DNA of 64,000 bases from an uncultured delta proteobacterium (lineage in GTDB: Bacteria; Myxococcota_A; Polyangia; Fen-1088), in contig CAVTRY010000006.1 of the NCBI GenBank assembly GCA_963737265.1, positions 1 to 64,000 on the forward strand, written 5' to 3'. Positions 4,990 to 43,032 of the stretch are shown here, piece by piece (the first letter of the stretch is position 1; every line of letters begins with the position of its first letter). The position numbers and the translations under genes were made by a program. A model generated the notes under the pieces. It had not been told where the DNA came from, made no database searches, and saw only the letters and a program-made list of their open reading frames with translations.

Positions 4990-6756
4990 ATGCATAAGCT
5001 GCTCATCGAGGACGATGAAGGGAAGACGGTCGCCGTCCCCTTGATTCGTGAGGAAATCACCATCGGTCGCCTGGAAGGCAACACGATCCGCTTGACCGAG
5101 CAGAACGTGTCGCGCAAGCACGCGCGCCTGACCCTGCACGAAAGCCGGCTCCAGATTGAAGACTTGCGGAGCTACAACGGCACGAGCCTGAACGGCAGCG
5201 CGCTATCTGGCGTCGTGATTTTGAAGGATGGCGACGTCATCATGATCGGTGACTACCGCCTCGGCATTGAGGAAGAACGGGCGAGTCAAGCAGCGCAGGT
5301 GTTCGCGGCGCCGGCAGCTCCCGCCGCCGCGCCGCCCGTCGACCAGGTCATGGACGGCCAGCCGACGATTCCCATCGCCACGCTGGCCCTGCAGACCGCC
5401 TTCTCCGAGCCCCCGGCACGCCTGATCGTCGCGGGTCGCGTCCTGCCCGGCAGCGAGTACATCCTCGATCGCGTCGCTCACGTCATCGGCCGTACCCCCG
5501 AGAACGACATCGTCCTCAACCACAAGTCCATCTCGCGCCACCACGCCAAGATCACGCGCGAGGGAAATCGCTACGTCATCCTGGATCTGGAAAGCGCGAA
5601 CGGGGTTCGCGTGGGCGGCAGCGCACAGGACCGGGCCGAGCTACAATCCGGCGACGTCATCGAGCTGGGCGAGGTCAGGCTGCGCTTCCTCACCGGCGAT
5701 GGCGCGGTTTTCGACGAGCCCCAGTCCTGGTATCGGGACAAGCGCAAGGTCGCGCTGGCCATAGGCGCGGGCGTGGTGGGGCTGGCGGTCGTGCTGGTAC
5801 TGGCCTTCTCGGGAAGCTCCGCCAAGCCGCCCGTGGAAACGAAGCGTCCGTCTCCTCCAGTGGTCGTGGAACCGGCGCCGCCGACGCCTCCCGTGCAAGA
5901 GCCAAAAGCCGCGGAGCCCCAGGTGCCGCCGCAGGTGCCGGTGGCGCAATTGCTGGCAGACGCAAAGACCGCCGCACAGGCGGAAAAGTGGGGTGAGGCG
6001 CTGGCCCTCATCACCCAAGCCACTGCGGCGGAGCCCAGCTCGGTCGAAGCTGCCGACCTGCGTAAGACGGTCGAGGGCGAAAAGGCGAACAGCGAGAAAC
6101 TGGCCGCGCTCAAGCAAGGCCTGGACAACAGAGACTACGAGGCTGTCCTAAAGGGTGCCGCGGAAATCCCTGACGACAGCATGTACAGAGCGCAAGCAAT
6201 TGAGCTGCGCAAAAGCGCGCAAAGCCAATTCGTCGCCACCCACATCGACGCGGCCAAGAGCAAGCTCGCAGCCGGCGAATGCGACGACGCTCGCCGCGAG
6301 GCGGAGCTGGTGCTGGGGTTGGAAGCGAAAAACAAGAAAGCCGCGGATGTGGTCAGGCGCTGCCAGGCCCTCGCCAACAAGCCTCAAGCCGAACCGGTGG
6401 TCGCGGCGGCGAAGCCCGCACGCCGTCGTGTCGCGGCCGTTCCGGTCGCACCGGTCGCCGTCGCGCCAAGGGCCAAGTTGCCCGAGGCTGCGAAGCCGGA
6501 AACAGCCGCGGATCCCGACAAGTTGATCAAGGATGCCCAGCAGGCCTGGTTCCGAGGCCAGTACGCCGCCGCCGTCGACTTTGCCCGCAAAGCCCTGCGC
6601 GCCAAGCCGAGCCTCACCAATGCGTACCAGATCATCGCCGTCTGTTCCTGCGCCCTCCACGACGCCGATGCGGCGGCCAAGGCTTTCGAGAAGCTGGACG
6701 AGCGCAACCGGCTGTATGTGAAGTCGGCGTGCCAGAAGAACGGTATCAGCTTCTAG
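4990..6756 (+). CDS. Double-FHA domain membrane protein with Pro-rich linker and C-terminal TPR-like region
   Basis: Two FHA motifs (IGR...VSRKHA...S.NGT and IGR...ISRHHA...SANGV), one TM helix, Pro-rich spacer, helical TPR-like C-terminus. Confidence 0.9.
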   Translation: MHKLLIEDDEGKTVAVPLIREEITIGRLEGNTIRLTEQNVSRKHARLTLHESRLQIEDLRSYNGTSLNGSALSGVVILKDGDVIMIGDYRLGIEEERASQAAQVFAAPAAPAAAPPVDQVMDGQPTIPIATLALQTAFSEPPARLIVAGRVLPGSEYILDRVAHVIGRTPENDIVLNHKSISRHHAKITREGNRYVILDLESANGVRVGGSAQDRAELQSGDVIELGEVRLRFLTGDGAVFDEPQSWYRDKRKVALAIGAGVVGLAVVLVLAFSGSSAKPPVETKRPSPPVVVEPAPPTPPVQEPKAAEPQVPPQVPVAQLLADAKTAAQAEKWGEALALITQATAAEPSSVEAADLRKTVEGEKANSEKLAALKQGLDNRDYEAVLKGAAEIPDDSMYRAQAIELRKSAQSQFVATHIDAAKSKLAAGECDDARREAELVLGLEAKNKKAADVVRRCQALANKPQAEPVVAAAKPARRRVAAVPVAPVAVAPRAKLPEAAKPETAADPDKLIKDAQQAWFRGQYAAAVDFARKALRAKPSLTNAYQIIAVCSCALHDADAAAKAFEKLDERNRLYVKSACQKNGISF

Positions 6757-13943: not shown

Positions 13944-15875
13944 TTAGTTCAGCGAAAGTTGCTGGCGGCGGCAATAGTCGAGAAGAACAAAGGGCGCCCA
14001 TACCCGCGACCAGTACAATCCTGGCGCGCCGGAGCGAAAGGCCCTCCACAGGCGCGCCAGGGTGTCGGGATTCAACCCGACACTTTCAACCAGCGCGTGG
14101 TCGGCGAAGAGGGCGTCGATCAAACAAGACAGCTCGTTCTTCGCCCACACCTCGATAGGCAGAACGAAACCCGATTTGGGGCGGGCGAAGAGCGCCGGGT
14201 CGAGCGACGGCATGGCCAGCGTCTTGAGCAGTTGCTTTCGCCCAAGCGGCGAGAAGCGAGCGCCGTCAGGGATCGCTTCGGCGGCCTCGACGACTGCGTG
14301 ATCGAGGAGGGGTACGCGCAACTCCAACGAGGTCGCCATGCTGGCGACGTCCGAGTCTCGCAGCAACCTTTCGCCAATAAACAGCGCGAGCTCCATTCGT
14401 GCCACGGCCGCCAGGCGCGTTCCCGATTTGAGCGTGGCGGCGATCTCTTGTGCGCGTTCTGGCGGCAACCCGGAAGGCGCCAAGTCCAGCATGGACGGCC
14501 TGGCCAGCTCGCCAAGAAAATCTCTGGTAAAGAGCCCGTGCATCACCTGATAGAGGCTCACGTCGTCGCCCCTCGTGTTGATCAGATCGGCGGACTTTCC
14601 CCAACGACTTTGCGGAGCAACCTCGCCGCCCTTGCCGGCACTCACCCGCATGATCACGCTGGCCACCAGGCGGGCAAGCGCGGGGGACAGGAAGCGGGCG
14701 ACTTGACCGAGGCGGTGGCTCTTGGGAAAGTCGCGAAAGCTGGAATAGCCACCGAACAGCTCGTCGCCTCCTGTTCCGGCCAATGCCACCGTCAAACCCG
14801 CCTCGCGTACGACGTGGCTCACGAAATAGGTGTTCATGGCGTCGAAGGTCGGCTGATCCAGGCCCCGCAACGCCTCGTCCAGGCGAGCGCGAAAATCTGC
14901 TTGCGTCAGCGTGAATTCCGCGTGCTCGGTACCGAGAGCTTCCGCCACCTTGCGTGCGTACACGGACTCGTCGAAGCCTGCTTCCTCGAACTTGATGTGG
15001 AAGGTCCTGACGGGTTGGGTTCCGACCCGAGCCGCGAGCGCGGCCACGGCGCTCGAATCCACGCCCCCCGATAGGAACACGCCAAGTGGAACGTCGCTGA
15101 CCAAGTGCTGGCGCGCGGCCGTGAGGAGTTCGTGCTCGAGCGCCGCCACCGCGTCTTTGCGGGGCAGCGTAGGCCGGTTCCCGAGCGACCAATACCGACA
15201 CGGGCATACCTGTGGATCGTCGGCGGAAATGCTTAGCGAAGTTCCCGAGGGTAGGAGCGACACTCCCTCGACGATGGTCGATGGCCCCACCACGAATCCG
15301 TTCCACAGATAGGTCGCGACACCGCGAGGATCGAGCCGCCGCGGCACGAGGCCGCTCGCGATCAGAGCGCGAACTTCAGAGCCGAAAAGCAGCACGTTGC
15401 CAGCTGAACGCCGCACGATGGTGTAGTACAGCGGTTTGATTCCCAGTCTATCCCGCGCCAAGAAGGCTTGGCGCCTGCCAGCATCCCACACGGCGAAGGC
15501 GAACATGCCGCGCAATCGGGTAACCATCGCCTCGCCCCAGCGTCCGTAGGCGCGCAAGAGTACCTCGGCGTCTCCGGTCGAACGAAACGTCTCGCCTTGG
15601 GCGACGAGATCGGCGCGCAATTCAGCGAAATTGTATATCTCGCCGTTGAAGACGAGCACGTTCCCGCGCCGTTCGTCGACCATGGGCTGGTGACCGTTGG
15701 GTGAAAGGTCGAGGACGGCGAGGCGGCGAAAACCCAGAATCGCGCCCGGTCCCGATGCCGTGGTGAACAGTCCCTCGCCGTTGGGACCGCGGTGGACCTG
15801 GGCATCCATCATCGCTCGCACGCTGGTTTCGAGGCTAGGATCGATGGCGCCCACAGCGCCGGCAATACCGCACAT
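13944..15875 (-). CDS. asnB: Asparagine synthase (glutamine-hydrolysing) family amidotransferase
   Basis: MCGIAG, HRGP, FNGEIYN, RDRLGIKPLY, FLSGGVDSS, GTGGDELFGGY. Confidence 0.95.
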   Translation of the reverse strand: MCGIAGAVGAIDPSLETSVRAMMDAQVHRGPNGEGLFTTASGPGAILGFRRLAVLDLSPNGHQPMVDERRGNVLVFNGEIYNFAELRADLVAQGETFRSTGDAEVLLRAYGRWGEAMVTRLRGMFAFAVWDAGRRQAFLARDRLGIKPLYYTIVRRSAGNVLLFGSEVRALIASGLVPRRLDPRGVATYLWNGFVVGPSTIVEGVSLLPSGTSLSISADDPQVCPCRYWSLGNRPTLPRKDAVAALEHELLTAARQHLVSDVPLGVFLSGGVDSSAVAALAARVGTQPVRTFHIKFEEAGFDESVYARKVAEALGTEHAEFTLTQADFRARLDEALRGLDQPTFDAMNTYFVSHVVREAGLTVALAGTGGDELFGGYSSFRDFPKSHRLGQVARFLSPALARLVASVIMRVSAGKGGEVAPQSRWGKSADLINTRGDDVSLYQVMHGLFTRDFLGELARPSMLDLAPSGLPPERAQEIAATLKSGTRLAAVARMELALFIGERLLRDSDVASMATSLELRVPLLDHAVVEAAEAIPDGARFSPLGRKQLLKTLAMPSLDPALFARPKSGFVLPIEVWAKNELSCLIDALFADHALVESVGLNPDTLARLWRAFRSGAPGLYWSRVWAPFVLLDYCRRQQLSLN

Positions 15876-15964: not shown

Positions 15965-17420
15965 CTATCGAGATCGGGCGACAGAAAGAGATGGGCCGGA
16001 GGTTGGCGCATCGGTTAACGACGCGACGCCGAGCCCGACGCCAACAGGCCCTTGCGGGGGTGCTTTGGACCTCGTCCCCAGGTCCCGTAGCTGACGCGTT
16101 AACACACCCGCGACGAGGTAAACGTAGACGCTCCAGAGGCCATTGGGGATCAGATCCACTGCCACAAGTGCCACAATTAGCGCCAGGCCGGTCAGGTTTT
16201 GTCGCTCGCGCTCATCCGCACAGTTGCGCAAGCGGGGGCGCGCCCACACGACAGGCCAAAACAGAGCTCCAAAAGCGACGAGAAAGCCGACCGCTCCAGC
16301 GATGCCCAGCTCGATAATCCAGAGCCCGTCAGTGACGGTCATGTCCCGTCCTTCGGCGTCAAAGACACGGTTACGACCGTAGGTTCCCCACCCAAAAAGA
16401 ATTCGCTCGCGAGCGTGGGCCAGCAAGAGATCTTCATTCTTGAAACGATACTCAAGGGAATCGGCCCGATCCTTCTGAAGTGCGCCGGCAGCGTCCAGAA
16501 ATTCGGACACGGGAAATACGTCTGAGGCGCGCAGCAGCGGATAGGCGATGGTCCCCACGGCCAAGACGGTTGCCAACCAGTAACTGCCGCTTCGAACGAT
16601 TCATCGAGATAAACAGAATGCCGACAAGAACCATGACTATCGCACCGGTGCTCCTGCACAAAACAACAATTACAGCGTTGTACCAAGCCAGAAGACGCAC
16701 TGGTAGGCCGAGCAACGTGCGTCGGCTTTTTGCCAAGACGAAAAGCGCCAGGGTCGTGACCATGAAAAAGCGAGCTAGCGCCAGCCCGTGCGCCATGAAA
16801 ACCGTGGGACGATATCCTCCCCATCGTATCGTCTGGAGAAACTCCCCGGTTGAGTAGCCGTAGATCCAGTTGTTGAACTGAGGACTCATGCGCATCTCAA
16901 CGATCGCGAACGGGCAATAGATAAGCCCCGCGATTCCTAGACCGGCGAGTAGGTCTTCGACATCCTTTGGGCCACGAAAGATCGCATACCCGAGGTAGAA
17001 GGCCAGATAGCTTGGGAAGAGCTCGCTGACTCCTACGAACATCCCGTCCTTGAATGTCATGGCGGGAATCACAACTTCGCCCGCGGCTCCAAATGTCATC
17101 GCGTCGCCGTTGGTCCAGCCAGTGAAAGCCCCGCCCAAAAAGGCGAGAAACGTGAGGGCCAGAAACCACTTCTCTTTCGGTAACTTCGTGACCCTCCCGG
17201 GACAACGCAACAAGCAGCCGATCAGGATGCACAGGTAAGGAACGTTGAATTTGCCGAGCGGAGGAACCCAAGGGATATGGAATTCGGGGCCCACTGGAAG
17301 AAACATCTCGGCGCCCAAGATGACAATGAGGGTTGCCTTCAGGGGCGGAACGACAAAAAAGACCCCGATCATCAGGGGGATCGAGAGATATAGGACTATC
17401 TCGGCGATGGTGCTTGTCAC
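15965..17420 (-). CDS. O-antigen ligase/Wzy-like polysaccharide polymerase (frameshift near 16577)
   Basis: Multi-TM protein with EMRMSPQ, RWGGYRPTVFMAHGL, SLEYRFKNE, FGWG.YGRNRV and TDGLWII, split over two ORFs by one extra base. Confidence 0.8.
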
Positions 17421-17602
17421 TGCTCGAACTCGAAGGAGCTTGTCCGTGTCGTGGTGTTTGAAGGCTGTCGTCGCTCGGACCGACTCTATACCCTGCCGGG
17501 GCAGTGTATCAGCCGAGATCGCCCCTTGACGCCCCTATCGAGACTGTCATATTCGCACGCTCCGCGACGTTGTCAGACGGGACGGTGCCGAAAAGGTCCA
17601 AG

Positions 17603-18775
17603 ATGGCCAGTCGAGACTACATCGTGTTTGGCAAACCGAGCTTCGCCGAAGAGGAAATCGACGCGGTGGCGGCAACTTTGCGCAGCGGTTGGGCCGGCAC
17701 GGGTGCCCAGGTCCAGGAGTTCCAGCGCGCGTTCGCTGCTTACGTCGGCACTCGTCACGCGGTCGCGGTCGGCTCATGCACCGCTGCACTTCATCTGGCG
17801 CTGATCGCCGCCGGTCTCGTCGAGGGCGACGAGGTCATCACCACGCCGCTGACGTTCGCGGCCACGGCGAACGCCATCGTTCACTCCGGGGCGACGCCCG
17901 TCTTCGCCGACATCCGGCGGGACAGCATGAACATCGATCCCGAACAGGTCGAAAGACGAATTTCGTCGAGAACCCGAGCGATCCTTCCCGTGCACCTGGC
18001 CGGCCGGCCCTGCGAGATGGATGCCTTGCGCACTATCGCGCACCGCCATGGGCTCATGCTCATCGAGGACGCCGCGCACGCCATCGAAGCACGCTATCGC
18101 GGCGGCAAGATCGGCGCGCTCGGAGACGCGAGTTGCTTCAGCTTCTACGTGACCAAGAACATAACGACCGTCGAGGGCGGCATGCTGTGCACCAACCAGG
18201 ATGCCATCGCGAACAAGGCGCGGATTCTCTCCTTGCACGGGATGAGCGCGGACGCCTGGACGCGCTTCAGCGACGAGGGTCACAAACACTACGACGTCAT
18301 CTTAACGGGTTTCAAATACAACATGACCGACGTCCAGGCGGCCATTGGAATTCGCCAGCTGGCGAAGATCGAAGGCTGGCTTGGGCGACGTCGCGAGGTA
18401 TGGGCACGTTACGATCGAGAGTTTGCCGACCTGCCGTGCGTTCGCCCCGCGTCCGAGGACCCAGAAACGATTCACGCACGACACCTCTACACTTTGCTGA
18501 TCGACGAAGCCACCAGCGGAATCACGCGCGACCAGTTCCTGCAGACCTTGCATCGCGGTGGCGTCGGCTGCGGCGTCCACTACCGCGCGCTGCATGCCCA
18601 CCCCTATTACCGCCGGCGCTTCGGCTTTGAGCCGGATGATTTTCCCAACGCGTTTTACGTCGGAGAGCGCACGGTTTCGCTGCCCCTGTCGCCTCACCTG
18701 ACCGACGAACAGGTCGATCGTATTGTCGGGCTGGTTCGCTCAACCCTGAGCAAAGGCATCGAGTTGCGCAAGTGA
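17603..18775 (+). CDS. DegT/DnrJ/EryC1/StrS family sugar aminotransferase
   Basis: SCTAALHLAL, TFAATANA, IEDAAHA, FSFYVTKNITTVEGG. Confidence 0.95.
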   Translation: MASRDYIVFGKPSFAEEEIDAVAATLRSGWAGTGAQVQEFQRAFAAYVGTRHAVAVGSCTAALHLALIAAGLVEGDEVITTPLTFAATANAIVHSGATPVFADIRRDSMNIDPEQVERRISSRTRAILPVHLAGRPCEMDALRTIAHRHGLMLIEDAAHAIEARYRGGKIGALGDASCFSFYVTKNITTVEGGMLCTNQDAIANKARILSLHGMSADAWTRFSDEGHKHYDVILTGFKYNMTDVQAAIGIRQLAKIEGWLGRRREVWARYDREFADLPCVRPASEDPETIHARHLYTLLIDEATSGITRDQFLQTLHRGGVGCGVHYRALHAHPYYRRRFGFEPDDFPNAFYVGERTVSLPLSPHLTDEQVDRIVGLVRSTLSKGIELRK

Positions 18776-18895: not shown

Positions 18896-20473
18896 GTGAG
18901 TCAAGAAGCAAATCCTCTCCACGGCACGAATGGCTCCGCGACAACGGCCCACGAGACGGCAACGGATCCCAACGGACACGGCGAGGGCTCGCACACCCTC
19001 AAGTCGAGAATGGCGCGCGGCTCGGCCTGGGCACTCGCCGGCTACGCGAGCAGTCAGGCGCTCCGACTAGTCAGCAATTTGATTCTGTGGCGCCTGCTCA
19101 ACGCAGAAGTCTTCGGAATTATGGCCATCATCAATGTCTTGATGCAAGGCCTCGGCATGTTCTCGGATGTCGGCATCGGCCCAGCCGTCGTACAACACGA
19201 ACGCGGCGACGATCCGATCTACCTAAACACTGCATGGACCATCCAGATCATTCGCGGATTCTGCCTTTTCCTGGTGGGCTGCATTCTCGCGGCGCCAGTG
19301 GCGGGTTTCTACAGACAACCCCAGCTTGCAGCCCTGATCCCGGTTGTAGCATTTGGCGCGGCCATCGCCGGGTTTAACTCTACTCGCCTCTTCACTCTGG
19401 CGCGCAAAGTAGCCCTCGGACGACTAACCGCGCTCGACCTGGGCTCGCAGATCGTTGGTCTCGTCGTGATGCTTATCGGGGCCTGGAGCAACCGGAGCAT
19501 CTGGGCAATCGTCGTCGGAGGTCTCGCATCGAACCTCGCGCGAGTGATTCTTAGCCACACGTTCCTTCCGGGGATCCGGAATCATCTTCGCTGGGATTCC
19601 ACCTGCGTCCGGAGCCTCCTACGGTTCGGACGATGGGTCTTCTTCAGCTCGCTGCTGTCCTTCATGGTGATGCAATCGGACCGACTCATCTTTGGAAAGC
19701 TGATCCCGCTCAGCCTGCTAGGCGTCTACAGCATTGCCCTGACGTGGGCCATGTTGCCGGCCGCGGTTTTCGAGCACGTGTTCAGATCCGTGTTATTCCC
19801 TCTGCTCAGCCGACTTCGCCAACAGGGCACCGACTTTTCCTCCGAGCTCCTCAAGGCGCGCACGCCGTGGCTGCTCCTTGGTGGCTGGAGCACGGCCTGC
19901 TTGATAAGCGGCGGTCCCACCCTGATCCGGCTGCTCTACGATGCTCGGGCGACGAGCGCGGGCTGGATCATTCAGGTTCTTGCGGCTGCAGCGTGGTTGA
20001 TGCTGCTCGAGAGCGCGAATGCGACATCGCTGCTTGCGCTGGGCGAGCCCATGCGGCTTGCCGCCGACAACGCGGCGAAACTGGTGGGTATGATCGTCTT
20101 CATCCCGCTCGGTTACGCTCGCCTTGGTTTCCCTGGGGCCGTGGCAGGATTCGCGGCCTCGGATCTACTGCGCTACGCGACCTCGGTGTACGGAGCGCGC
20201 AGGCACAAGGTCGCCTACTTGGGCCAAGATGTTTGGCTATCCGTCCTGGTGATCGCAACTACCGGCATGGGCGTGCTGGCAACTCGGTGGATCACGCCCT
20301 CCCTGCGTACCATCGCCTGGCACCCGGCCCGGCTGGGCGTCGTGCTCGAAGGATTGGTCATCACGCTGTTCGTGAGCATCGGCTGGGGTTGGGTCTACCT
20401 GCGCGAGCGGTCTCGGCGCCACAAGCAGCTCGGCCAGCCGTGCTTTCGCCCGTCAACCCGTTCGATGCTCTAA
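18896..20473 (+). CDS. Oligosaccharide flippase (Wzx-like)
   Basis: Multi-TM protein with FSDVGIGPAVVQ, LNTAWTIQIIRG, FGRW.F.SS and QSDRLIFGKL. Confidence 0.9.
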   Translation: MSQEANPLHGTNGSATTAHETATDPNGHGEGSHTLKSRMARGSAWALAGYASSQALRLVSNLILWRLLNAEVFGIMAIINVLMQGLGMFSDVGIGPAVVQHERGDDPIYLNTAWTIQIIRGFCLFLVGCILAAPVAGFYRQPQLAALIPVVAFGAAIAGFNSTRLFTLARKVALGRLTALDLGSQIVGLVVMLIGAWSNRSIWAIVVGGLASNLARVILSHTFLPGIRNHLRWDSTCVRSLLRFGRWVFFSSLLSFMVMQSDRLIFGKLIPLSLLGVYSIALTWAMLPAAVFEHVFRSVLFPLLSRLRQQGTDFSSELLKARTPWLLLGGWSTACLISGGPTLIRLLYDARATSAGWIIQVLAAAAWLMLLESANATSLLALGEPMRLAADNAAKLVGMIVFIPLGYARLGFPGAVAGFAASDLLRYATSVYGARRHKVAYLGQDVWLSVLVIATTGMGVLATRWITPSLRTIAWHPARLGVVLEGLVITLFVSIGWGWVYLRERSRRHKQLGQPCFRPSTRSML

Positions 20474-21739
20474 GAGGTTGCCGGGAGCGAGGGCGTCGGG
20501 AGCGGCGGGTGTCGGATGTCCGCTCGTCGTCGCGCCTTCGATGGTCGCCCGGAAGTGCGCCACCATGCCTCGGGCGATGTCGTCGATGGCGTGTTGCCGC
20601 CGCACATCTTCCCGCCCGCGCAACCCCATCTCGGCAAGCTCTGCCAGAGGAGCGTCGAGGATCCGCCGAATGCTATCGACGAGAGCTTCGACCGAGCCTG
20701 CCGGTACGAGCCAGCCGTTCCGTCCGGGAACAACCAATTCGGGAATTCCTGCCACAAACGTGCTGAGCACGGGACGCGCGCGCGCCAGCGCTTCCATGAT
20801 GACGACTGGCAGCCCCTCGGCAAAGCTAGGCAGTACGAACGCACAGCTCTCATCAAGAGAACGCCGAATCGTTTCGCTGTCGGCCCAGCCCAAGATACGA
20901 ACGCTCGGGTCAAGATTGTTGCGCTTGATGGCAGCCTCGAGCTCGCTACGCAGGACTCCGTCGCCAATCAACACGAGCTCGACTTCGCGACCTTCCCTGT
21001 GCAACCGAGCCATCGCCTCGACGAGAAGAAGTTGGCCCTTCTGCTCACACAGGCGACCAACAGTAACCAGTCGGCGCGGGCCGTGCATCGGACTCGGAGG
21101 CGGACCCAAAAACTGGTCATCCACGCCGCAGCGAACGACCTTGATGCTCGACCAGTAGCGAAATCCGCAGCGCCGGAACAGCTGGCTACGTCCGTAGCTG
21201 CTGATGGCCGCGACAAAGGACGCGCGTGCGATTTTCTCTCCCAGTCCCAAGATGAGCGCCTTGTCGAACTCCTCGGGACCATGCGCCGTGAAGCTGTAGG
21301 TCGGGCCTCCCATGTGATGGCACAACATCGCCACCGTGGTGGAATTGGTACCAAAATGGGCGTGGACATGCTGAATCTTTTCTCGCGCGAGCCAGCGCAC
21401 GAGAACGCAGGCTTCGGCGAGATAAACGAGGTGCCGCAATAAGCCGCGGTCTGAGCGCCAGCCAACGCGTATGGCAAGCCACAGCGCGCCGACAAAGAGT
21501 GCGGAATGCGCTGCGAACATCCGCACCATGGCTTGTAACAACCCAGTCCAACCGGCATCTAGTACGATATGCGTCTTCCTAGCTTCTTCCTGGTCAAGGG
21601 GATCGACCAGATGGTCCGTCGTCCGTCGGAGACTGCAGCGCATGACTTGGCAACCCTCTCGTTCGACCGCGAGGATCTCCCGCCGAATGAAGACATGGCT
21701 GATCTTCGGGTACTGGTTCACGAGGTAGGCAATTCTCAT
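20453..21739 (-). CDS. GT4 glycosyltransferase (WcaL-like)
   Basis: MRIAYLVNQYP, HVHAHFGTN, VGRLCEQKG, EGLPVVIMEALA. Confidence 0.93.
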   Translation of the reverse strand: MRIAYLVNQYPKISHVFIRREILAVEREGCQVMRCSLRRTTDHLVDPLDQEEARKTHIVLDAGWTGLLQAMVRMFAAHSALFVGALWLAIRVGWRSDRGLLRHLVYLAEACVLVRWLAREKIQHVHAHFGTNSTTVAMLCHHMGGPTYSFTAHGPEEFDKALILGLGEKIARASFVAAISSYGRSQLFRRCGFRYWSSIKVVRCGVDDQFLGPPPSPMHGPRRLVTVGRLCEQKGQLLLVEAMARLHREGREVELVLIGDGVLRSELEAAIKRNNLDPSVRILGWADSETIRRSLDESCAFVLPSFAEGLPVVIMEALARARPVLSTFVAGIPELVVPGRNGWLVPAGSVEALVDSIRRILDAPLAELAEMGLRGREDVRRQHAIDDIARGMVAHFRATIEGATTSGHPTPAAPDALAPGNLLEHRTG

Positions 21740-21997
21740 CGCGGGAACCTTAGCACGCGTATGCGCGATCCGGCGGGAGGCCCGGTGGGCGTCGGTCGGC
21801 TCAACGGTCCCATTGGAGAACGGCATTTCGCCGGTCTTCCTAGTTCCGACCAGCGAGTTCCCCATTGCATCGCTCGACGAGATTTTTCAATGTCCTAAGT
21901 GTTACTAGCCCGTTGCGTTGTGTAAGCCACTTCACGCTTGACATGCAAACGGCCACGTGGTCTCTTTCACCTTCAAATTCAAAAATAGGAACCTAGC

Positions 21998-23407
21998 ATG
22001 GGATCATCAAGTGGAACACTAAGGCGTCACGAGGCTTGGGTAAGCTCTCTGCAGCGCTTGGTTGATGCTGCGACTGTGATACTGGCCCAACTACTCGCGC
22101 ACTCAGTCTACGGTGAGGCGTGGCGCGAGCAGACGATGACGATTACAGTCATCGGACTGTTGGTATATGGATTCGCGGCTGAGGTGAGTGGCCTTTATCG
22201 GCCGTGGCGGATGGAGACCATCCTTCGCGAAACCAAGGATACGCTGATTGCGTGGTTGCCGGTTCCCCTGGCGCTGCTGGCATTCTGGTTCTTTACCAAG
22301 ACCTCGACGCAATACTCCCGCGTAGCTGCGTTCGGTTGGTTCATCCTTGCGCCGATCTTGCTCTGCGGCTTGCGTGTCGTCGTCCGGATCGGATTGCGCA
22401 TCCTCCGCGCCCAGGGACGCAACATGCGTCGAGTTGCCATCCTCGGCTGCACCAAGGATGCCGAACGACTGGCCGAGTCGTTTGAGAATCTCCCTTGGCT
22501 CGGGCTCAGTCTGACCGGAGTGTTCGATGACCGTTCCGAGAAGCGCCGGCATGTTCCAAAACATCCGCGGTGCAAAGTCGTCGGCAATTCGGAGGACTTG
22601 ATTCGCCAATGCCGCCAGGGTTTGATCGATGTGGTTTACGTCGCGCTGCCCCTGCGCGCCGAGCTGCGCACGGCCGGGCTTCTTTCCGTTCTCGCGGATA
22701 CCACGGTGACCGTCTACCTGGTGGCCGACTTTCTCTACTACAGTCTGCTGCGCGCGCAGTGGAGCCAGGTTGGCAATATCCCTGTGGTCAGTGTTCACGA
22801 TTCTCCCTTCGAGGGCGTGGTTGGGTGGGTGAAGCGAATGGAGGACTTGGTTCTGGGAAGTTTGATTGTCCTGCTCACCGCGATCCCGATGATCTGCATC
22901 GCCATCGCCATCAAGGCCAGTTCGCCTGGACCGGTTTTCTTCCGGCAGTGGCGCTACGGTTTGAGCGGAAGGAAAATCCGCATCCTCAAATTTCGCACCA
23001 TGAAAGTGTGCGAGGATGGCCCCGCCATCGTCCAGGCTTCAAAGAACGATCCACGCGTCACCAGGGTTGGACGGTTCTTGCGTCGAACCTCGCTCGACGA
23101 GTTTCCACAGTTCCTGCAGGTTTTGAGCGGCGAGCTCTCGCTGGTCGGCCCGAGACCGCATGCCGTGGCTCATAACGAGCAATACCGGGCACTCATTCAC
23201 GGCTACATGCTTCGTCACATGGTCAAGCCCGGAATCACCGGCTGGGCGCAGGTCAATGGCTGGCGGGGAGAAACAGCCGAGCTGGAGAAGATGGAGCAGC
23301 GCGTTCAACACGACTTGGAATACATCCGCAATTGGAATCTCCTCCTCGATCTGAAGATCATTTTTCTGACGATTTTCGGCGCCAAAAAGGGCCGAAACGC
23401 CTACTAG
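21998..23407 (+). CDS. wcaJ: Undecaprenyl-phosphate glucose phosphotransferase (WcaJ-like priming transferase)
   Basis: KFRTM, DPRVTRVGRFLRRTSLDE.PQF, VGPRPHA, VKPGITGWAQVNGWRGET. Confidence 0.93.
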   Translation: MGSSSGTLRRHEAWVSSLQRLVDAATVILAQLLAHSVYGEAWREQTMTITVIGLLVYGFAAEVSGLYRPWRMETILRETKDTLIAWLPVPLALLAFWFFTKTSTQYSRVAAFGWFILAPILLCGLRVVVRIGLRILRAQGRNMRRVAILGCTKDAERLAESFENLPWLGLSLTGVFDDRSEKRRHVPKHPRCKVVGNSEDLIRQCRQGLIDVVYVALPLRAELRTAGLLSVLADTTVTVYLVADFLYYSLLRAQWSQVGNIPVVSVHDSPFEGVVGWVKRMEDLVLGSLIVLLTAIPMICIAIAIKASSPGPVFFRQWRYGLSGRKIRILKFRTMKVCEDGPAIVQASKNDPRVTRVGRFLRRTSLDEFPQFLQVLSGELSLVGPRPHAVAHNEQYRALIHGYMLRHMVKPGITGWAQVNGWRGETAELEKMEQRVQHDLEYIRNWNLLLDLKIIFLTIFGAKKGRNAY

Positions 23408-23449
23408 ATCTTGCCCTCACTCGACGAGTCACCTGGCTCTTCGTCAGCG

Positions 23450-24170
23450 ATGCTGGCGCGGCTTGGTTTGGTTTTTCGCCAGCCCGGTGTCGTTACCAGG
23501 GAAGCGCGCCTGGCTCAAGAGCACGACCGGCTTCTGCCGGAAGAAGCTGCCGTCGTCTCCACCTCGGTCGAAAAACGGCGGCAGGAATTTACCGCCTCGC
23601 GGAGTTGTGCTCGCCAGGCATTGGCCCAAATTGGCATCACCGACTTTCCCTTACTCCCCGATCAGCATCGTGCGCCCATCTGGCCCGCGTCGGTCGTGGG
23701 ATCCATTACACACACCGATGGTTGTCCGAAGGGATACTGCGGCGTGGCCGTTGCCGAGCGGCGCATCGCTATGGCGTTGGGCCTAGATGCCGAGCCGAGC
23801 CAGCCCCTTCCCCGCGACGTCTGGCGGTTGGTGCTCGAACGAGCTGGAGCAGCGGGACGCTCGGCAAACCCCGTCACCAGGAATCCGCGCACGGTTAATT
23901 TTCTCCGCGAAGGAAACCACGTACAAGACCCTCTTTCCCATTTTCAGGCAGTTTCTTGAATTCTCTGACGTGCACGTCGACTTTGCGCCCGAGCCGGGCG
24001 TTTTCTATTCCGAGCTAGTCGGCGCGGCCCGAGATCTTGGTCTGGCCGAGACGAGACTTGTGGGACGATTCGTCATCGATGACGAGCTGTTGGTCACCGG
24101 TATGATCCTGCCTGCCTCCGGTTTAGGGCTTGCCCTAGAAGGGCTGTCGCTTCACCATGATACTTGCTAG
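23450..24170 (+). CDS. 4'-phosphopantetheinyl transferase, EntD/Npt type (frameshift near 23835)
   Basis: KRRQEF...R.CARQAL, P.WP..VVGSITHT and LGLDAE in one frame; FSAKETTYK in the next frame. Confidence 0.88.
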
Positions 24171-24191: not shown

Positions 24192-26701
24192 TATGGGGCT
24201 CAAACGCGGTGACAACGACGAATCCGACCACGAGACGCTTAGCTTTGCTGAGTTCGTCAATCGCGACGGCCCTCGTCCGAGCTCCGATGGAGCTTCGCTC
24301 ATCCTCGGTGAGCCGGGCGACGATCAGCATGTCTTTCCCCTGACCCGCAATCCCACGGTCATCGGACGGTCGAACAACGCGGACCTAGTCCTTGCCGATC
24401 CGACAATTTCTGACTTTCACGCTCGTATTATCAAGCACAGTTTCGGATACACGGTTGAGGACATGGGGTCGGTTGAAGGAACCTTTGTGGGCGAACGTCG
24501 CATCAACCACGCCCGCCTGGTCAACGGCGACACCCTCCGGCTCGGAACCACTATGCTCACCTTCGTGAACGAGCGGGAGGGTCGCTCCAAAGACCAGGCC
24601 AAGACCATGGCGCTGGTGACGGTGCAAGGCACCGCGAAGGGACTGGCACCTCGCACGACCATCGTACGAGATTCCCATTCGCGACCCAACACCGTACGTC
24701 GCATTGAAACTCCACCAACGCCAGAGACCAGGTGGAAAGCGGCAGACGGCCACGATGTCGAGCCCTCGCTCGACGATATTCTGCTCAAGATCGTCCACGC
24801 CTTTCGCTTCATTCGACAACACGCCCGGCTGATGCTGACCTTTGCAATCGCGGGCACTGCCCTCGGTGCCGCCAGTTACAAATACTTTCCCCCAGCGCGC
24901 GCCGCCTATTGCGTCGTGACCCTGCACCATGCACCCAAGGCCAATCCCATCGAGCCAGACACGAGCCAGCCTCACTCCGATTCGATGCAGTTCTTCGCCG
25001 ACGCCGAGCGATCCTTCGCCAGCCGCGCCAACATCATGTCTACACTCAAACGGCTCGGCGTGGTCAACCCCGACGAAACATCAGCCGACGGCATCGCCAA
25101 GCGGATGCGCTTCGAATCGCTGGGCGACGATACCTACACAGCCACGCTGACTCCAAGCCCTTTTGGCCGACGCGACGGTAGCCACGTGGGGTTTCTTGAT
25201 GCCCACGTCAAGAATTACGTCGAGTCGGAAGTCGAGAAGAAGCTCAAGGTCTTCGTCGCGGAAGTTGACTTTCTACGCTCCCAGACCGAGGCATCCGACA
25301 AGCGCCTGCAGGAAATTTCGGAGCAGACCGTGACCTTTCGCGAAGCCCATTCGGATCAGATCCTCGGCGCAGGGAAGCCTGACCGCGGGTTCGCCGGCAG
25401 GGCTCGAAACGCGCCGAATCGAGCTCTCTGGGCAGATCAATCGCCTTTCCGGCGAACTTGAGGGGATTCGCAGCCAGCTCGCCCGCGGCAGCGCGCTCAG
25501 CCAGGCCAAGGCACAATCGGGGCAGGCTGACCGGGATGCCCTTGCCAGCGTCCGTCGCAAGCTCGGCGAACTGCGGGCGCAGGGGTTTGCCGACGGGCAT
25601 CCCGATGTCGAGCGCCTGCTTACGGAGCAGAAAGAGCTGCAGAGGGTGGTGGATGAACATGTCCGTTCCGATGTAACCCAGTTCGAAAAACGTTCGAATA
25701 CCGCCTACGACACGCTGCAAAGCCAAGCCGATCAACTGGGAGCCCAGCTCAGGGCCGCGCGATCTGAACGAGAGTTCATCGAGTCCAGCCTGCGCTCCCT
25801 GCGCGTGGTTAGCAATGAGTCGCCCAAGGTCAACGCACGGATTGATGAGCTGATGCGCATCAAGGAAGAGGTGGTTCGGCAGCACGGTCTTCTCTTCGAT
25901 CGTTTGAAGAAGGCTGAGGTCCAACTCCAGCTCGAACGCGTGTCCGCGACCTCTCGCTACGAGATCGTGATCCCAGCGCGACTGGAGTCGCCACCAGGTC
26001 GGAAGGCCTATGCCCTGCGGCTAGCGTCGGGGCTAGGGCTTGGCCTCTTGCTGGCAGCTCTCGTGCTTGGCATCGGTGAGCTGATCGGGCGCTTAACCAG
26101 GGTGGCACAGGGAAACGCAGCCACGGTTGTGGTATTGCTTGGTTTTGTTGCCTCTCTCGCGATGGGTTGCGCCCACGACGAAAGGTTTACCTGGGTGGAG
26201 GACGTCCCGCTGAGGGAATCTGGCTCTGAAGGCATCATCCACGCGCGCGACACGATTTTGGTCGAAGTTCGGAAGCAGCCAACCCTTTCGGGTGAATTCG
26301 TCGTCCGCGACGATGGACACTACGCGCAGCCCATGGTGGGTAGCGTTCATGTCGCCGACCTGACGCCTGGGCAAGTTGCCAGGGGCGTCGCTATAGCCCT
26401 CAAGGACGTTGTGGTCAACCCCGCGGTGTCGGTCTGGATTACCAAAGTATCCCCAATTCGCGTCAGCGTGGTTGGCGAGGTAAAGACGCCAGGTACGTTC
26501 GAGCTCGCCCGCGATCGGGGCCTGCTTGCCGTGCTTGCCCTGGCGGGTTGGCTGACCGAGTTCGCGCACAGTGACCGCGTCTTTGTCGTGCGGGCGGGCG
26601 GCGGGGATCGGATCCGCTTCCGCGTGCGTGACATCACGACAGCCGAGCCGCACGCCGCCCAGTTCGTGCTGGCGGATTCGGACGTCGTGGTCGTGGAGTA
26701 G
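24192..26701 (+). CDS. FHA + polysaccharide co-polymerase (GumC/Wzz-like) + OPX/Wza (Poly_export, SLBB) fusion; one frameshift near 25366
   Basis: FHA (IGR...ISDFHA...S.EGT), TM, coiled coil with HPDV, TM, then hydrophobic ...LAMGC and D.I.VEV...LSGEFVVRDDG...VVGEVKTPG...LALAGWLTEFA...L...DVVVVE. Removing one base at ctcggcgcag joins the two ORFs with no stop. Confidence 0.75.
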
Positions 26702-26706
26702 CGACG

Positions 26707-28125
26707 ATGCTCGCCGGCGGCCCGGTGACCCTGTTCGCGCTGTGCTGGCTGCAAGCGAACGCGCAAGTGGAGCTTGGTGGTCGCGCTGAAGTGAGAGCCG
26801 GGGAGATGCCCGTCGTGGTCCAGACCAACGGGACGCCGCAGTATATTTCGCAGGATATCCTAGTTGCCTCGATCACGCCCACCTTGGCGCTCTCCTCGCG
26901 CACGAGTGACAACGAACTGCGGGCTGACTACTCGTCGCGGTTTTTCTGGGGCGTGTCCGACACTGCCGCTCCGCTTCGACCCCTCATCCTGCAGACCTTG
27001 GCGCTCACCGATCTCTATCGGCCTTCAAAGCGCAGCACGTGGCGCATGGAGCTGCACGCGATCTATGGCGAGGAAGATTCGATAGCTCTGGCACAGTTGC
27101 TGCCCGGCCAGGCCACACTGCCGACATCGATGAATATCATTTTGGTAGCAGGATCCGCGGATGCAGCTTGGCGGAGCACGCGCCTAACGACCCTGTCATT
27201 CCGGGTCGCCGCACTTCATCGTCAGCCACTGGACAACACGACATCCGGGGCAAACACGTATGTCCTCAGCACGCAAACGAACGTAGTCGCCACGCCAGAA
27301 TTGAATCATGCGCTTTCGCGCCGCTCGCACCTCGAACTCTCGATTCCCGTCGGCTACTACAATTCCCTCATCAACACCTTGTCACCGCCCAAGCTCGTCG
27401 CACCAAGCGAATTCGTGCTTGCCAGCCACTACAACTCCCTCGCCAACGCGCTGGCACCCACCCCATTGTCAGATCGACTTGATGCTCTCGTCGTTCAGCC
27501 TCAGATCGCCTGGATCGACGAGCTGTCGCGATGGCACCGGCTACACTTGGCCGTTGGCGTTTCCTACGCTGACATCATCAGGCACCCCACTGTGGTCGCT
27601 GGCGCTGCATCCTACCCCCTCCCCTACCCTATCACGCCGATTGTCGACGCCAGCCTGGATTCGCTCCTCCTCAGAACGCGTTCGGTTGTCCTCCGCTCGG
27701 CCCTATCCGCCGGTGTGAGCTGGTACTTGGATCCAGTTCTTGGCACCGCGGTACCGCGCGCGCCGCTCGCGGCTCGTATCGACGCCGCCTTGGGGACATC
27801 CTGGAACGCTGGGGCCTACGTCAATTTCTCGACCGATGCCAGTCGGAAACCGTTGGCGGCGGCAATTCCGGCAGGTATCACCGTTTCCCAGGATGGGTAT
27901 CCGAACGAAAGAAATGGTGGATTTCCGGATGAGACCGTTCTGACCGCCGGCATTCCCGTCCGCTACACCTGGGCGCGGCTCGCATTCGTCGAATTCGCGG
28001 CCCGGTACACCGTGCGCGCTCCCCATCTGCGGGTCCCAGACCAATACTTCCACTGGGGAGAAACCGAAATCTGGGCAACTCTGACGTTGTCCACAGTGAG
28101 CAGATTACCCTTGGGACCATCCTAA
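26707..28125 (+). CDS. Putative outer-membrane beta-barrel associated with polysaccharide export
   Basis: Signal-like N-terminus, alternating amphipathic strands, located directly after the OPX domain. The fold is inferred. Confidence 0.55.
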   Translation: MLAGGPVTLFALCWLQANAQVELGGRAEVRAGEMPVVVQTNGTPQYISQDILVASITPTLALSSRTSDNELRADYSSRFFWGVSDTAAPLRPLILQTLALTDLYRPSKRSTWRMELHAIYGEEDSIALAQLLPGQATLPTSMNIILVAGSADAAWRSTRLTTLSFRVAALHRQPLDNTTSGANTYVLSTQTNVVATPELNHALSRRSHLELSIPVGYYNSLINTLSPPKLVAPSEFVLASHYNSLANALAPTPLSDRLDALVVQPQIAWIDELSRWHRLHLAVGVSYADIIRHPTVVAGAASYPLPYPITPIVDASLDSLLLRTRSVVLRSALSAGVSWYLDPVLGTAVPRAPLAARIDAALGTSWNAGAYVNFSTDASRKPLAAAIPAGITVSQDGYPNERNGGFPDETVLTAGIPVRYTWARLAFVEFAARYTVRAPHLRVPDQYFHWGETEIWATLTLSTVSRLPLGPS

Positions 28126-39675: not shown

Positions 39676-42600
39676 CTACTTGACCGGCGCCACTGTGGTC
39701 GGGTTCGGGAAGTTTCCGCTTAGGAACAACATCGAGTACACGCCGAGGGATTCCTGGAAATAGCGGTCGTTTTCGACCGTGGTGGAAACCGCCTCTTCAA
39801 TGGCTTCCCGCCGGATGTCGCTGGTCGTGGCATTGCCGTCGTTAAACAAACTGACGTAGTTACACATGGCCGTGTTGACCGTGTAGGAATTGTGACCGTA
39901 GGCTGGGTCGCAGTTGGTAATCGTGCCGTCGCCATGGAGTCGGTCGCAGATTGACGAGAAGCGATTGGCATTCGCCTCGACCGGATTGTTCTTGTAGAAG
40001 TTGTTGAAGAACTCCTGGGTGTTGTCGATCTTCGCTTGAATGCGCGACTTCGGGCTGTAGTGGGGCGAAGAGCTCGCCGTGTTCTCGGGTAGGGTGGCGT
40101 TGTTGCCGAACCAAGCGCCATCGATCCCAACGCGCCAGAGCGAGCGCAGCCCCTCGTAGGTCCCGACATCGACCGAGGCGCATGGCTTGGCCACATTTCC
40201 GTAGTCGCCCATCAAACCCGGATTGAGCCCCGGCTGGTCGTAGCACATCTCGATCATCTGGTAGACAGTCTCGGAGGTCTTGTACCAGAAATCGCGATGG
40301 GTCTGGCCGTTCGCCGCCTGCTGCGTGGCCCCCAACTGGGAAGACAAGAAATCGCCAAACACCCTGAAATAGCCCGGCGGGTAGTAGTCCATGAAAACCT
40401 GGCTGGGTTGTCCCGCAGCGTAGGAGCAGGGTTGGCCGGGGTAGTTCTGGCAATTCTTGTCCGCGGTGTCGCCCATTGACGGGTAGTTCCACTTGCCATC
40501 GTATTTGGTGTTGATCTCGCACTCCATCTTCGTCAGCCAACCGACGGCTGCCGGAGCGTACTCGGGCCACTGCAAAGCCGCGTACACCAGACCGATACCG
40601 ATGTCCACGTCGCCGTCGAAGGCGCTGTCCTCGTTACCCGAGCAAGCCTCCACGTCGATGTTGCATGCCGAATCGAGCTGTCGGCACGCCGTGCCGCCAT
40701 CCCACATCCAGCCCATCAGGCCGCCGCAGTACTTCTTCGACGACTGCGACAGGAAGTGCCGCACGAAGTTCCACAAGGCATCGAAGGTTGGCTTGTCGCC
40801 GATGGCGGCCGAAATGGCCATGCCGTAGCCTTGGCCTTCGCTTACAGTCTTGGGCGGATCGGTCTGAACGCGCGCCGTTCCAGGTCCACACACCGTGTCC
40901 GTCGTCGTAACGTAATTGTCCCTCCAGAGAAGGTAGCGCTCAAAGGTGAAAGCATTGAGAAGATCCTGAACGGTGGCCGGGTTGGGGTAGATATAGGCAA
41001 GCGAGGCGCCGTAGGGATACTTGTACTCCGTGCCTTTGTACGGGAACCAGCCCCCGTAGGGGAAGCCCACTGTCACCGGCGTCGCGGGCGGCTTGGGCGC
41101 GCACATGCTGTCGTTCCACACGCCGGTGGCCGACCAGTCGCCGTTCGTTCCGTCAGGATAGTAGTCGAAGAACTTGAAGTTGTCCGGCGGGGCCGTCCTG
41201 GGGATATCCGGCTTGCCGTAATACCAACGCAGCCAGTAGTCCTTGGCCACGGTCGGGAAGGGCCTGGGCGCGACCGTGTTCCACTCCGGACTGTGCAGCT
41301 TGTCCACCGCACGCCAAGTCGTCCCGGCGACGAAAAGTGAATCGGGAACCGGACAATCGAACCACGGACGATCTTGTTCGCGCCAACAGATCACCTTGGT
41401 GGCGGTCGTTCCGTTGACTTCCATTTCAATCCACTTGGGCATGAGCTCGGGCTTGGGGAAGAAGGTGAAGGTCTTCTGGCCGGCCCAAATGTAGCGGAAG
41501 TGCACCGAGTGATAGCCCGTCGGCTGCGGCGGGCTGCACGGATCGACGGCGGCGACGCTGCCGCCACCGCAACCCTGGTAACCGGGACCCGGGTTCGCCG
41601 TGTAGACGAAATAACTGTTCGGCTGCAGCGACCAGTCCATGCACTTGGTCGCGGAGGCAACGGTGTTGTCGGGCGCGCCGGCGTAGCCTATCCAATACTC
41701 GTTGGCCGTCCGCGGCGGCAAGGCGATGTTGTTGGTGAACAGCCCCTTCGACTCGTCCGGATAGCGGAACACGATGGAGGGCTCGGTACCGCTGGCCGGC
41801 CAAACGGAATTGGGAATGAGCACGTAGTACCAGGGACACACTCCGTCCTGGAATTCGAGGTTCGCCGTCATTTCGCAACCGCTGAGCCCAGTGACCTTGA
41901 GGCTGCTCGGATAGGGCGGCGGAGTGAAGCCGAGCTTGGTCGCGACATCAAGCGGGCAGGCGGAGCCGGCATAATTCGTTTGCGGATTCGTCGGGTCGTT
42001 CCACGGCCAGCGGAAGTGCACCTTGGTGTATCCGCTGGGAGGCGTCTCGTCTGGCGCCGTACCGATCTTGCATGCTAGGGCGGCAAGCGTGCTGCTGTCG
42101 GACGTGACGTGGAACTTGCCGCTGCCGATGGGCACGTTGGGATATTGGCCATAGTCGCCCTTCAGCGACGTGCTCGGACCGGTGTATTCGATCCAAAACT
42201 CCTTGCTCTTGTTCACCGATGTGATGTCGAAGAAGCCCGAGGAGCTGTCCGCCGGGCACGCGCTTGAGCCAATGGCCTGGATCTGGATGCTGGTGATGGT
42301 GTTTGGAATGCAAACCGAATAATAGGTGCAGGGGGGATTGCCGTTGATGTCGGTGGTCCCGTCGAGACGGGCGCCGTACTTCTGGTAGCCGTTCGCCGGA
42401 TCGATCACGATGACCCCAAGCGGGGGATTGGTCATGGTGTTCATGGTCGGGGTCACGCCCGAAGACCACAGGTCGCGCACGTGGACCCGCACTTGCCCGG
42501 CTGGGCAGACGAGGTTCTCGGTGGGCGGCGGCGGTGGAGGCGGCGGAGGCGCGTCCGGAATCGCAACCGTGGCGGCATCGGTCGGGCTTGGCGGGGACCG

Positions 42601-42858
42601 GACGGCGGGAACATCAGAGCCTCCAGCGTCGGGGAGTGGTCCAAGCTGGACCGGCTGGCCAAAGGGGCTGGACGTGGGTAGCCCTGCGTCGGAAAGAGTT
42701 ACCGGCGGTGGCGGCACAAACGTCGGAGGGTCGGTGACGCCAACCGATCCAGACTGGACATTCGACAGCAGGAGGTGCGAGTTGCAGCTTACGAGCGCTC
42801 CAACCAGGGCCACGGCTGCCAGTCCAAGACGCAAATATTTCCACGCGTTTGAATTCAT
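39676..42858 (-). CDS. Glycoside hydrolase family 8 lipoprotein with Pro-rich linker and three N-terminal repeated modules
   Basis: Lipobox LVSC; GH8 motifs TVSEGQGYGM, LMGW, SAFDGDVDIG.GLV.A..QW, DYYPPGYFRVF. Confidence 0.88.
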   Translation of the reverse strand: MNSNAWKYLRLGLAAVALVGALVSCNSHLLLSNVQSGSVGVTDPPTFVPPPPVTLSDAGLPTSSPFGQPVQLGPLPDAGGSDVPAVRSPPSPTDAATVAIPDAPPPPPPPPPTENLVCPAGQVRVHVRDLWSSGVTPTMNTMTNPPLGVIVIDPANGYQKYGARLDGTTDINGNPPCTYYSVCIPNTITSIQIQAIGSSACPADSSSGFFDITSVNKSKEFWIEYTGPSTSLKGDYGQYPNVPIGSGKFHVTSDSSTLAALACKIGTAPDETPPSGYTKVHFRWPWNDPTNPQTNYAGSACPLDVATKLGFTPPPYPSSLKVTGLSGCEMTANLEFQDGVCPWYYVLIPNSVWPASGTEPSIVFRYPDESKGLFTNNIALPPRTANEYWIGYAGAPDNTVASATKCMDWSLQPNSYFVYTANPGPGYQGCGGGSVAAVDPCSPPQPTGYHSVHFRYIWAGQKTFTFFPKPELMPKWIEMEVNGTTATKVICWREQDRPWFDCPVPDSLFVAGTTWRAVDKLHSPEWNTVAPRPFPTVAKDYWLRWYYGKPDIPRTAPPDNFKFFDYYPDGTNGDWSATGVWNDSMCAPKPPATPVTVGFPYGGWFPYKGTEYKYPYGASLAYIYPNPATVQDLLNAFTFERYLLWRDNYVTTTDTVCGPGTARVQTDPPKTVSEGQGYGMAISAAIGDKPTFDALWNFVRHFLSQSSKKYCGGLMGWMWDGGTACRQLDSACNIDVEACSGNEDSAFDGDVDIGIGLVYAALQWPEYAPAAVGWLTKMECEINTKYDGKWNYPSMGDTADKNCQNYPGQPCSYAAGQPSQVFMDYYPPGYFRVFGDFLSSQLGATQQAANGQTHRDFWYKTSETVYQMIEMCYDQPGLNPGLMGDYGNVAKPCASVDVGTYEGLRSLWRVGIDGAWFGNNATLPENTASSSPHYSPKSRIQAKIDNTQEFFNNFYKNNPVEANANRFSSICDRLHGDGTITNCDPAYGHNSYTVNTAMCNYVSLFNDGNATTSDIRREAIEEAVSTTVENDRYFQESLGVYSMLFLSGNFPNPTTVAPVK

Positions 42859-43032
42859 GAGGCCCATCCAACATAGAGGACGTGAGAGCGATGGCGACTG
42901 GGGACGGTCGGCGGATCTTGAGGATGTTACCACACGGTCCGGCGACCAAGCATTGTGTGGTCGCAATCCCACGTTATGCTACCTCGTCATGGTCAGTGTC
43001 TTCCCTGTGGATCCATCGGGTAAACTAGCCGC

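Follow-up and report, generated by a model that had tools for sequence, protein, structure and literature searches.

The window (the whole 64,000-nucleotide stretch of DNA that we analysed) contains a single gene that joins an FHA domain, a co-polymerase (PCP), and an OPX protein, with a predicted signal peptide between the last two. This gene is best explained as the precursor of two proteins of a Wzx/Wzy export machine of the class-3 OPX/beta-barrel type. Judging from the sequence, we think it likely that Lgt and LspA process the product, which would give two proteins in a 1:1 ratio: an FHA-co-polymerase in the inner membrane and an OPX lipoprotein in the outer one. The parts are already known; we did not find the PCP-OPX fusion or the internal signal in print in the literature searched. 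The features are listed in Table 1.

Table 1. Positions of the fused gene, its predicted parts, and its neighbors in the window.
Feature	Position	Strand	Comment
Single gene: FHA, co-polymerase, predicted internal signal, OPX (about 835 aa)	24193..26701	+	Split here by one spurious base
Extra base, assembly error	25365..25365	+	Left out in X1 and X3 contigs
FHA domain (PF00498, E 3e-16, aa 55-118), cytoplasmic	24355..24546	+	Pfam
TM1 of co-polymerase	24829..24879	+	Homology and model; under the 1.6 Kyte-Doolittle cut
Periplasmic co-polymerase domain	24889..25969	+	PslE, E 0.0023; Wzc; TIGR03007, E 4e-20
TM2 of co-polymerase	26021..26077	+	Hydrophobicity and model
Basic amphipathic cytoplasmic linker	26078..26116	+	PCP tail, probably doubling as OPX signal n-region
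Predicted internal type II signal peptide, h-region and lipobox	26117..26170	+	Invariant Cys at 26168-26170
Predicted mature OPX lipoprotein (177 aa), D1 (Poly_export) and D2 (SLBB)	26168..26698	+	EpsY/WzaB-like
Putative outer-membrane beta-barrel, EpsX/Wzp-type partner	26707..28125	+	18 strands in model
WcaJ-type initiating phosphoglycosyl transferase	21998..23407	+	Conserved upstream
Wzx flippase	18896..20473	+	Same cluster
Probable Wzy polymerase, frameshifted	15965..17420	-	No Pfam match; hydrophobic character and cluster position
GT4 glycosyltransferase	20453..21865	-	

As assembled, the gene is broken into two frames. The first (24193-25458) encodes the FHA domain, a hydrophobic helix, and the first half of the co-polymerase. 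The second is open and stop-free from 25334 to 26701 and encodes the HPDV coiled coil and TM2, then a basic linker and a hydrophobic stretch that runs to a Gly-Cys pair, and finally the Poly_export and SLBB domains. Reading through both frames, with an X at the break, gives 835 amino acids. A preliminary description of this DNA put one extra base near 25366, and we place it at 25365. The base is missing from an otherwise identical contig of run X1 (depth 3.5; possibly the window's own sample, with a coverage gap at 25881-26291) and from a short-read contig of a related strain, run X3 (depth 5.7); X1 and X3 were compared as contigs only. Two neighboring genes are also frameshifted in the window: the PPTase gene (23411-24170), which is a single ORF in the six relatives checked, and the wzy gene, which is a single ORF in the four checked. 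Because both contigs lack the base and these neighbors are whole in relatives, the frame break is an error of the assembly. The X3 contig covers 24853-26181 and therefore extends over the PCP/OPX junction; its net indel is in frame. We looked for a stop at the junction near 26095 and found none; the ttaa that occurs near 26092 lies in another frame.

The co-polymerase has the architecture of a PCP-2 protein, with two TM helices that flank a large helical periplasmic domain. This domain is made of an alpha/beta base and a long coiled coil, and its longest modelled helix has 84 residues. The OPX matches PF02563 (E 2e-12) and then PF10531 (E 1e-9), and its closest structure is WzaB (9N9A, E 2e-19). 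Against the NCBIfam model for EpsY, it gives E 2e-37, which is below the cut-off; four fused homologs score 124-148 bits against the cut-off of 320 of this equivalog (NF041843). As the preliminary description had noticed, there is no C-terminal outer-membrane helix: the protein is of the D1D2 (class-3) type, and its DVVVVE end in the 25334-26701 frame lies on the last SLBB strand, as does the end of 35/35 aligned proteins. The overall topology that was proposed (cytoplasmic FHA, TM1, periplasmic coil, TM2, short loop, third helix, periplasmic OPX) is supported. The full-length model has a pTM of 0.36 and does not give the relative placement of the domains.

The fusion is conserved. A homology search among proteins of 777-2215 amino acids (8,000 candidates scored) gave 70 matches, 64 of which are intact co-polymerase-OPX fusions (798-890 amino acids, 97-100% query coverage, 44-80% identity). 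FHA is present in 61 of the fusions and was lost in three. The other six matches are multi-SLBB OPX-type proteins instead (five inspected). Together with the stop-free junction, these homologs bear out the single in-frame chain of FHA, GumC, and Poly_export domains, and the long homologs are not encoded as separate genes. We also examined 20 genome loci, annotated as uncultured Myxococcales, Polyangia, delta proteobacterium, or Proteobacteria: the junction is in one frame in 16, split in three, and frameshifted in one.

Within the window's order, a query made from the junction matches 43 of 89 genomes. The match is continuous and stop-free in the window's own genome, in 9/10 matching genomes of the same genus, and in 5/6 of one other genus. 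In all 18 loci that we took from other genera, a stop separates the PCP from the OPX (one locus contains Ns). Four genomes from other families (G020, G050, G058, and G061) seemed to have fusions by their open-frame values, but their DNA has a PCP/OPX stop in every case. When we searched 1.84 billion representatives with a profile, the best 150 listed included only five junction-spanning proteins, next to about a hundred FHA-co-polymerases that stand alone (representatives at 50% identity). In a FastTree of 153 co-polymerase domains (midpoint root; the rows include 20 hand-picked fused proteins and the loci), the 33 fused rows all group in a single clade (support 0.999) that sits within the stand-alone rows. 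This clade also includes eight unfused rows; of these, L031 and L033 are splits verified in the DNA, and the rest could be truncations. The simplest reading of these sequences is a fusion that is limited to one clade and probably arose once, with reversions. In the literature searched (titles and the starts of abstracts of openly accessible papers), we found neither a PCP-OPX fusion nor a natural polyprotein with an internal lipobox, although PCP-OPX fusions could be among the entries of the OPX tables of PMC9603273. We also found no published description of the FHA-co-polymerase family that stands alone in Polyangia-type myxobacteria.

These stand-alone relatives have the same FHA-TM-coil-TM arrangement, and an orthologous OPX gene with the same Cys comes directly after it, but they have a stop and a restart between PCP and OPX (18 split loci). 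The linker of the fused proteins corresponds to the tail of the free co-polymerases. Also, the OPX is free in L033 and fused in protein P0084, yet the two have the same signal end and the same N-terminus.

What was first described as a third TM helix is indeed a hydrophobic helix that ends in a Cys, but it keeps the features of a type II signal peptide. The Cys is unchanged in 65/65 fusions (0 changes over a tree length of 14.7), while columns of the h-region change 18.4 times on average; 48 of 645 columns show no change at all. The residue at -1 is G, A, or S in all 65. A disulfide does not explain the Cys: just one other periplasmic Cys is common, and it is replaced by S or A in 17/65, while 11/62 have no second Cys; having found no conserved partner, we ruled out this role. 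In the truncated second copy at L058, where the OPX was lost, the Cys was lost as well (one case). The uncharged run of the third helix averages 17.2 residues in the fusions and 15.7 in the signals of 22 free orthologs, and the 19-residue insertion scores are +2.9 and +3.3, compared to -1.3 for TM2, on a crude scale that has no positional term. (This comparison leaves out 2 of 67 fused rows and also loci L014 and L016, all of which are pattern misses, and L054, which has Ns.) The third helix is thus like the free signals, and unlike TM2, in both length and hydrophobicity. The linker before it has a net charge of +1 to +4 in 61/62, and the genome encodes lspA and several lgt genes. The best reading of the sequences is that this helix is the type II signal peptide of the OPX.

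Some features count against processing. The strict lipobox pattern [LVI][ASTVI][GAS]C fits none of the 65 fusions and 3 of the 22 free orthologs, and a relaxed pattern fits 38/65 versus 19/22. Pro is at position -3 in 23/65 fusions and in one of the 22 free orthologs (L066); among 316 heuristic signal candidates from the window's genome, about 2% have it. Strong conservation extends to His at +3 and Trp at +9, so a structural role may be what preserves this segment. Finally, a 13-residue loop ties the third helix to two other helices, and Lgt and LspA may not act on a helix in this setting.

If the chain is processed, then Sec would insert TM1 and TM2, and the third helix would act as an internal signal that exports the OPX. 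Lgt would add diacylglycerol to the Cys, and LspA would cut just before it. The resulting 177-residue OPX lipoprotein (about 19 kDa) would move to the outer membrane, oligomerise, and cap the barrel. The inner membrane would keep the FHA-co-polymerase (about 73 kDa), in which the used signal would either serve as a third helix or be trimmed off. The halves would then meet again non-covalently, with the tip of the coiled coil against D1, as in M. xanthus. We suppose that the fusion arose when the tail of the PCP merged with the n-region of the OPX signal; this would yield equal numbers of the two subunits. As precedents for processing of an internal signal, Hayashi et al. (1985) reportedly engineered internalized prolipoprotein signals, in artificial constructs, and the FbcH cytochrome b-c1 precursor of Bradyrhizobium is said to have an internal signal that is cut by signal peptidase I, with no lipidation.

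The dimensions of the periplasm bear on whether the chain could stay whole. The distance from the Cys to the first strand of D1 is 27 residues in 59/64 measured fusions, which by arithmetic is about 100 Å at full stretch; with the height of the OPX added, the reach is about 160-175 Å. In relatives with solved or modelled structures, as given in PMC13434223, PMC9603273, and PMC12819527, the PCP measures 156-165 Å, the OPX 62-74 Å, and the periplasm 230-327 Å. PMC9603273 gives 210-442 Å for the periplasm in all but one strain measured. Because a tether of about 100 Å faces a periplasm of 230-327 Å, an OPX that is still tied to the inner membrane cannot reach an outer-membrane barrel, with the caveat that these dimensions come from other organisms. 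To place the Cys on the OPX we rely on the EpsY model of PMC9601211, in which it lies on the outer-membrane face. In WzaB, the C-terminus binds the barrel, the base of D1 binds the PCP, and the non-acylated protein is non-functional (PMC12819527).

Lipidation without cleavage would conserve the Cys too. Lgt could modify the Cys while the cut by LspA is absent, partial, or conditional. The OPX would then remain at the inner membrane and serve as an adaptor in the periplasm or as a reserve under regulation. The frequent Pro at -3 could slow cleavage, and PMC9603273 treats models that place the OPX away from the outer membrane. However, the -1 residue, which is important to both enzymes, stays G, A, or S; the free ortholog from L066 has Pro at -3 as well; and the C-terminal face of WzaB must reach the barrel (PMC12819527). 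We consider an uncut lipoprotein unlikely.

The preliminary description had instead proposed a permanently fused module across the periplasm. The chain would be whole and unmodified, with the third helix as a permanent anchor and with the OPX covalently tied to the co-polymerase while docking on the barrel. The continuous frame in 64 homologs, the tight junction (80-88 residues between the last coiled-coil motif and the Cys), the self-consistent topology, and the non-canonical residues at -3 and -2 all fit this proposal. Also, since compact Wzc projects only about 50 Å (PMC12819527), a tethered OPX could touch it. But a permanent anchor leaves the invariant Cys and the small -1 residue unexplained, the helix has not lengthened into an anchor, the reach falls short of the range of periplasmic widths, and lipidation of WzaB is essential (same paper). 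With the signal features under strong selection and the tether too short, we do not retain the covalent module, which is at least as improbable as the uncut lipoprotein.

Alternatively, two proteins might arise because translation starts again, or is recoded, close to the junction, which would make the fused frame incidental. Individual loci do have an in-frame ATG, GTG, or TTG in the linker, and L030 has strong Shine-Dalgarno-like pairing. But we found no start position common to the loci examined, which rejects a conserved internal start codon: the best single position in the linker, which covers -30 to -14 from the Cys, is shared by 5/17 loci, and some loci, such as L023 and L039, have no candidate start codon in the linker. 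Also, codon choice among synonyms is unconstrained at the listed conserved positions, and an unneeded open frame would be lost over such divergence. This makes an internal start very improbable. Although the window is indel-prone, there is next to no chance that the fusion is an artefact of assembly or annotation, as the same junction is found in 64 proteins of several sources, in 16/20 loci, and in one short-read contig.

To return to the processed polyprotein, its predicted partner is encoded by the next gene. The product of 26707-28125, which the preliminary description took for a beta-barrel partner, has a signal-like N-terminus and matches no family in Pfam. A model from a 16-row alignment (pLDDT 78, pTM 0.73) has 18 strands as counted from DSSP, and it is closest to the 18-stranded OccD/AlgE porins (OpdQ, Z 20.3; AlgE, Z 19.7, rmsd 4.5 with 331 residues aligned). 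A search of PDB sequences with the barrel alignment gave 0 matches. The resemblance to EpsX is weak: two of the 16 aligned barrels match NF041842 (best E 6e-6) and the window's protein does not, and the Atlas feature score to an EpsX cluster is 0.97 (rank 2), with recognition just under the bar. The barrel gene directly follows the OPX in 18/20 loci, and the other two lack DNA or lack the OPX. This gene order, together with homology, suggests that the OPX docks on the barrel.

The closest known systems are those of M. xanthus: EpsV/EpsY/EpsX (WzcX/WzaX/WzpX) for EPS export and WzcB/WzaB/WzpB for BPS export. As described in PMC9601211, PMC9603273, and PMC12819527, they likewise have a D1D2 OPX that lacks the outer-membrane helix and has a lipobox Cys, and the EPS and BPS systems likewise have an adjacent 18-stranded barrel and a co-polymerase and PGT within a Wzx/Wzy cluster. 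By NCBIfam, EpsY is the best match of the OPX and EpsX is the best match of the barrel alignment, both weak. According to the same papers, M. xanthus encodes PCP and OPX in two genes and has the OPX signal at the N-terminus, while here they are fused and the signal is internal. Also, EpsV works with the pseudokinase EcpK, while the window's contig has no match to the BY-kinase family. The four papers that we searched for FHA do not mention it. Because the OPX is closest to WzaB and EpsY and the barrel is weakly similar to EpsX, we expect that the system works like the class-3 OPX/barrel machines of M. xanthus, by an analogy in which the EpsY cut-off is not reached.

For the co-polymerase part, the best solved match is PslE (E 0.0023) from the P. 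aeruginosa PslD-PslE complex (9V6L/9V75). This complex is an 8:8 trans-envelope conduit, and it is the source of the dimensions used above (PMC13434223). In PslD-PslE and in E. coli Wza-Wzc, the PCP and OPX are separate polypeptides and the OPX itself spans the outer membrane. These PCPs have a C-terminal kinase-like domain, and the fused protein has an N-terminal FHA domain instead.

FHA domains that bind phosphothreonine are marked by G-R, S-x-x-H, and N-G loop residues. In the fused clade, the corresponding motifs read S-D-F/Y-H and S-x-E/D-G-T, whereas most stand-alone relatives have S-x-N-G-T. More precisely, among the 60 fused FHA domains that could be parsed (of 64), the R is present in 58/60 and S-x-x-H in 60/60, and the loop Asn is replaced by E or D in 60/60; at least 39 of 41 parsed stand-alone domains (of 99) have the Asn. 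Because of this replacement by Glu or Asp, it is doubtful that the FHA domain of the fused clade binds phosphothreonine. No BY kinase is fused to the co-polymerase. TIGR01007 has no match on the window's contig and one match above the cut-off on another contig; a divergent pseudokinase could escape this model. With one regular expression, we found no Ser/Thr kinase motif in the window or in loci L021-L040; the genome has 45. On balance, we favor a picture in which LspA would cut a natural polyprotein into a polytopic inner-membrane protein and an outer-membrane lipoprotein, the two would reassemble 8:8 as a trans-envelope conduit, and a degenerate FHA domain would control the co-polymerase instead of a tyrosine kinase.

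The fusion is a natural test of whether Lgt and LspA process a signal peptide that lies behind two membrane helices. Because the OPX needs its lipid and must reach the other membrane, function itself reports cleavage. The fusion also bears on how class-3 OPX systems bridge the periplasm and how they keep the stoichiometry of PCP and OPX. An uncut chain would force a new architecture. If the proposed processing is true and general, then internal lipoboxes would be an overlooked route of lipoprotein biogenesis, one that predictors of N-terminal signals miss.

Two FHA-co-polymerases from a single genome (loci L033 and L031) are nested inside the fused clade, and the C-terminal end of each lies within the linker, which is the basic cytoplasmic stretch before the third helix, or immediately past it. 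At L033, the OPX and the barrel are encoded on the opposite strand, behind the initiating phosphoglycosyl transferase (PGT), and have their own signal. The arrangement at these two loci is most simply read as a natural re-splitting of the fusion.

A second co-polymerase copy (L058, on G004:C287) keeps the complete third helix and terminates with Ile-stop at the position expected for the cysteine. In the fusions P0061-P0063, L028, and L029, a proline-rich low-complexity N-terminus takes the place of FHA. Among the matches listed from a profile search, P0086-P0230 make up a large family of FHA-co-polymerases that stand alone and lack a tyrosine kinase domain; our literature search found no paper on this family.

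The window's own genome (G000) contains at least six LGT-family loci, one of which is apparently frameshifted. For the 592-aa protein of the window, Pfam gave no family besides its FHA domains.

Features discussed in the text
Feature	Location	Strand	Remark
Region of FHA-co-polymerase copy	L033:2940-7977		same genome as L031
Region of FHA-co-polymerase copy	L031:2352-4325		same genome as L033
lspA, then two lgt-like genes	G000:C5:10380-12751
592-aa protein	window 4978-6753	+	two FHA domains
AsnB-like amidotransferase	window 13944-15875	-	within cluster
DegT aminotransferase	window 17504-18775	+	within cluster
EntD-like 4'-phosphopantetheinyl transferase	window 23411-24170	+	frameshifted in window, intact in relatives
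Large probable lipoprotein	window 39676-42972	-	partial GH8 domain, cysteine-rich repeats

In 11 of 20 loci, the EntD-like gene of the polysaccharide cluster is flanked by the PGT and the fusion; one more locus has it close by. The AsnB-like amidotransferase and the DegT aminotransferase suggest that the polymer contains amidated or amino sugars.
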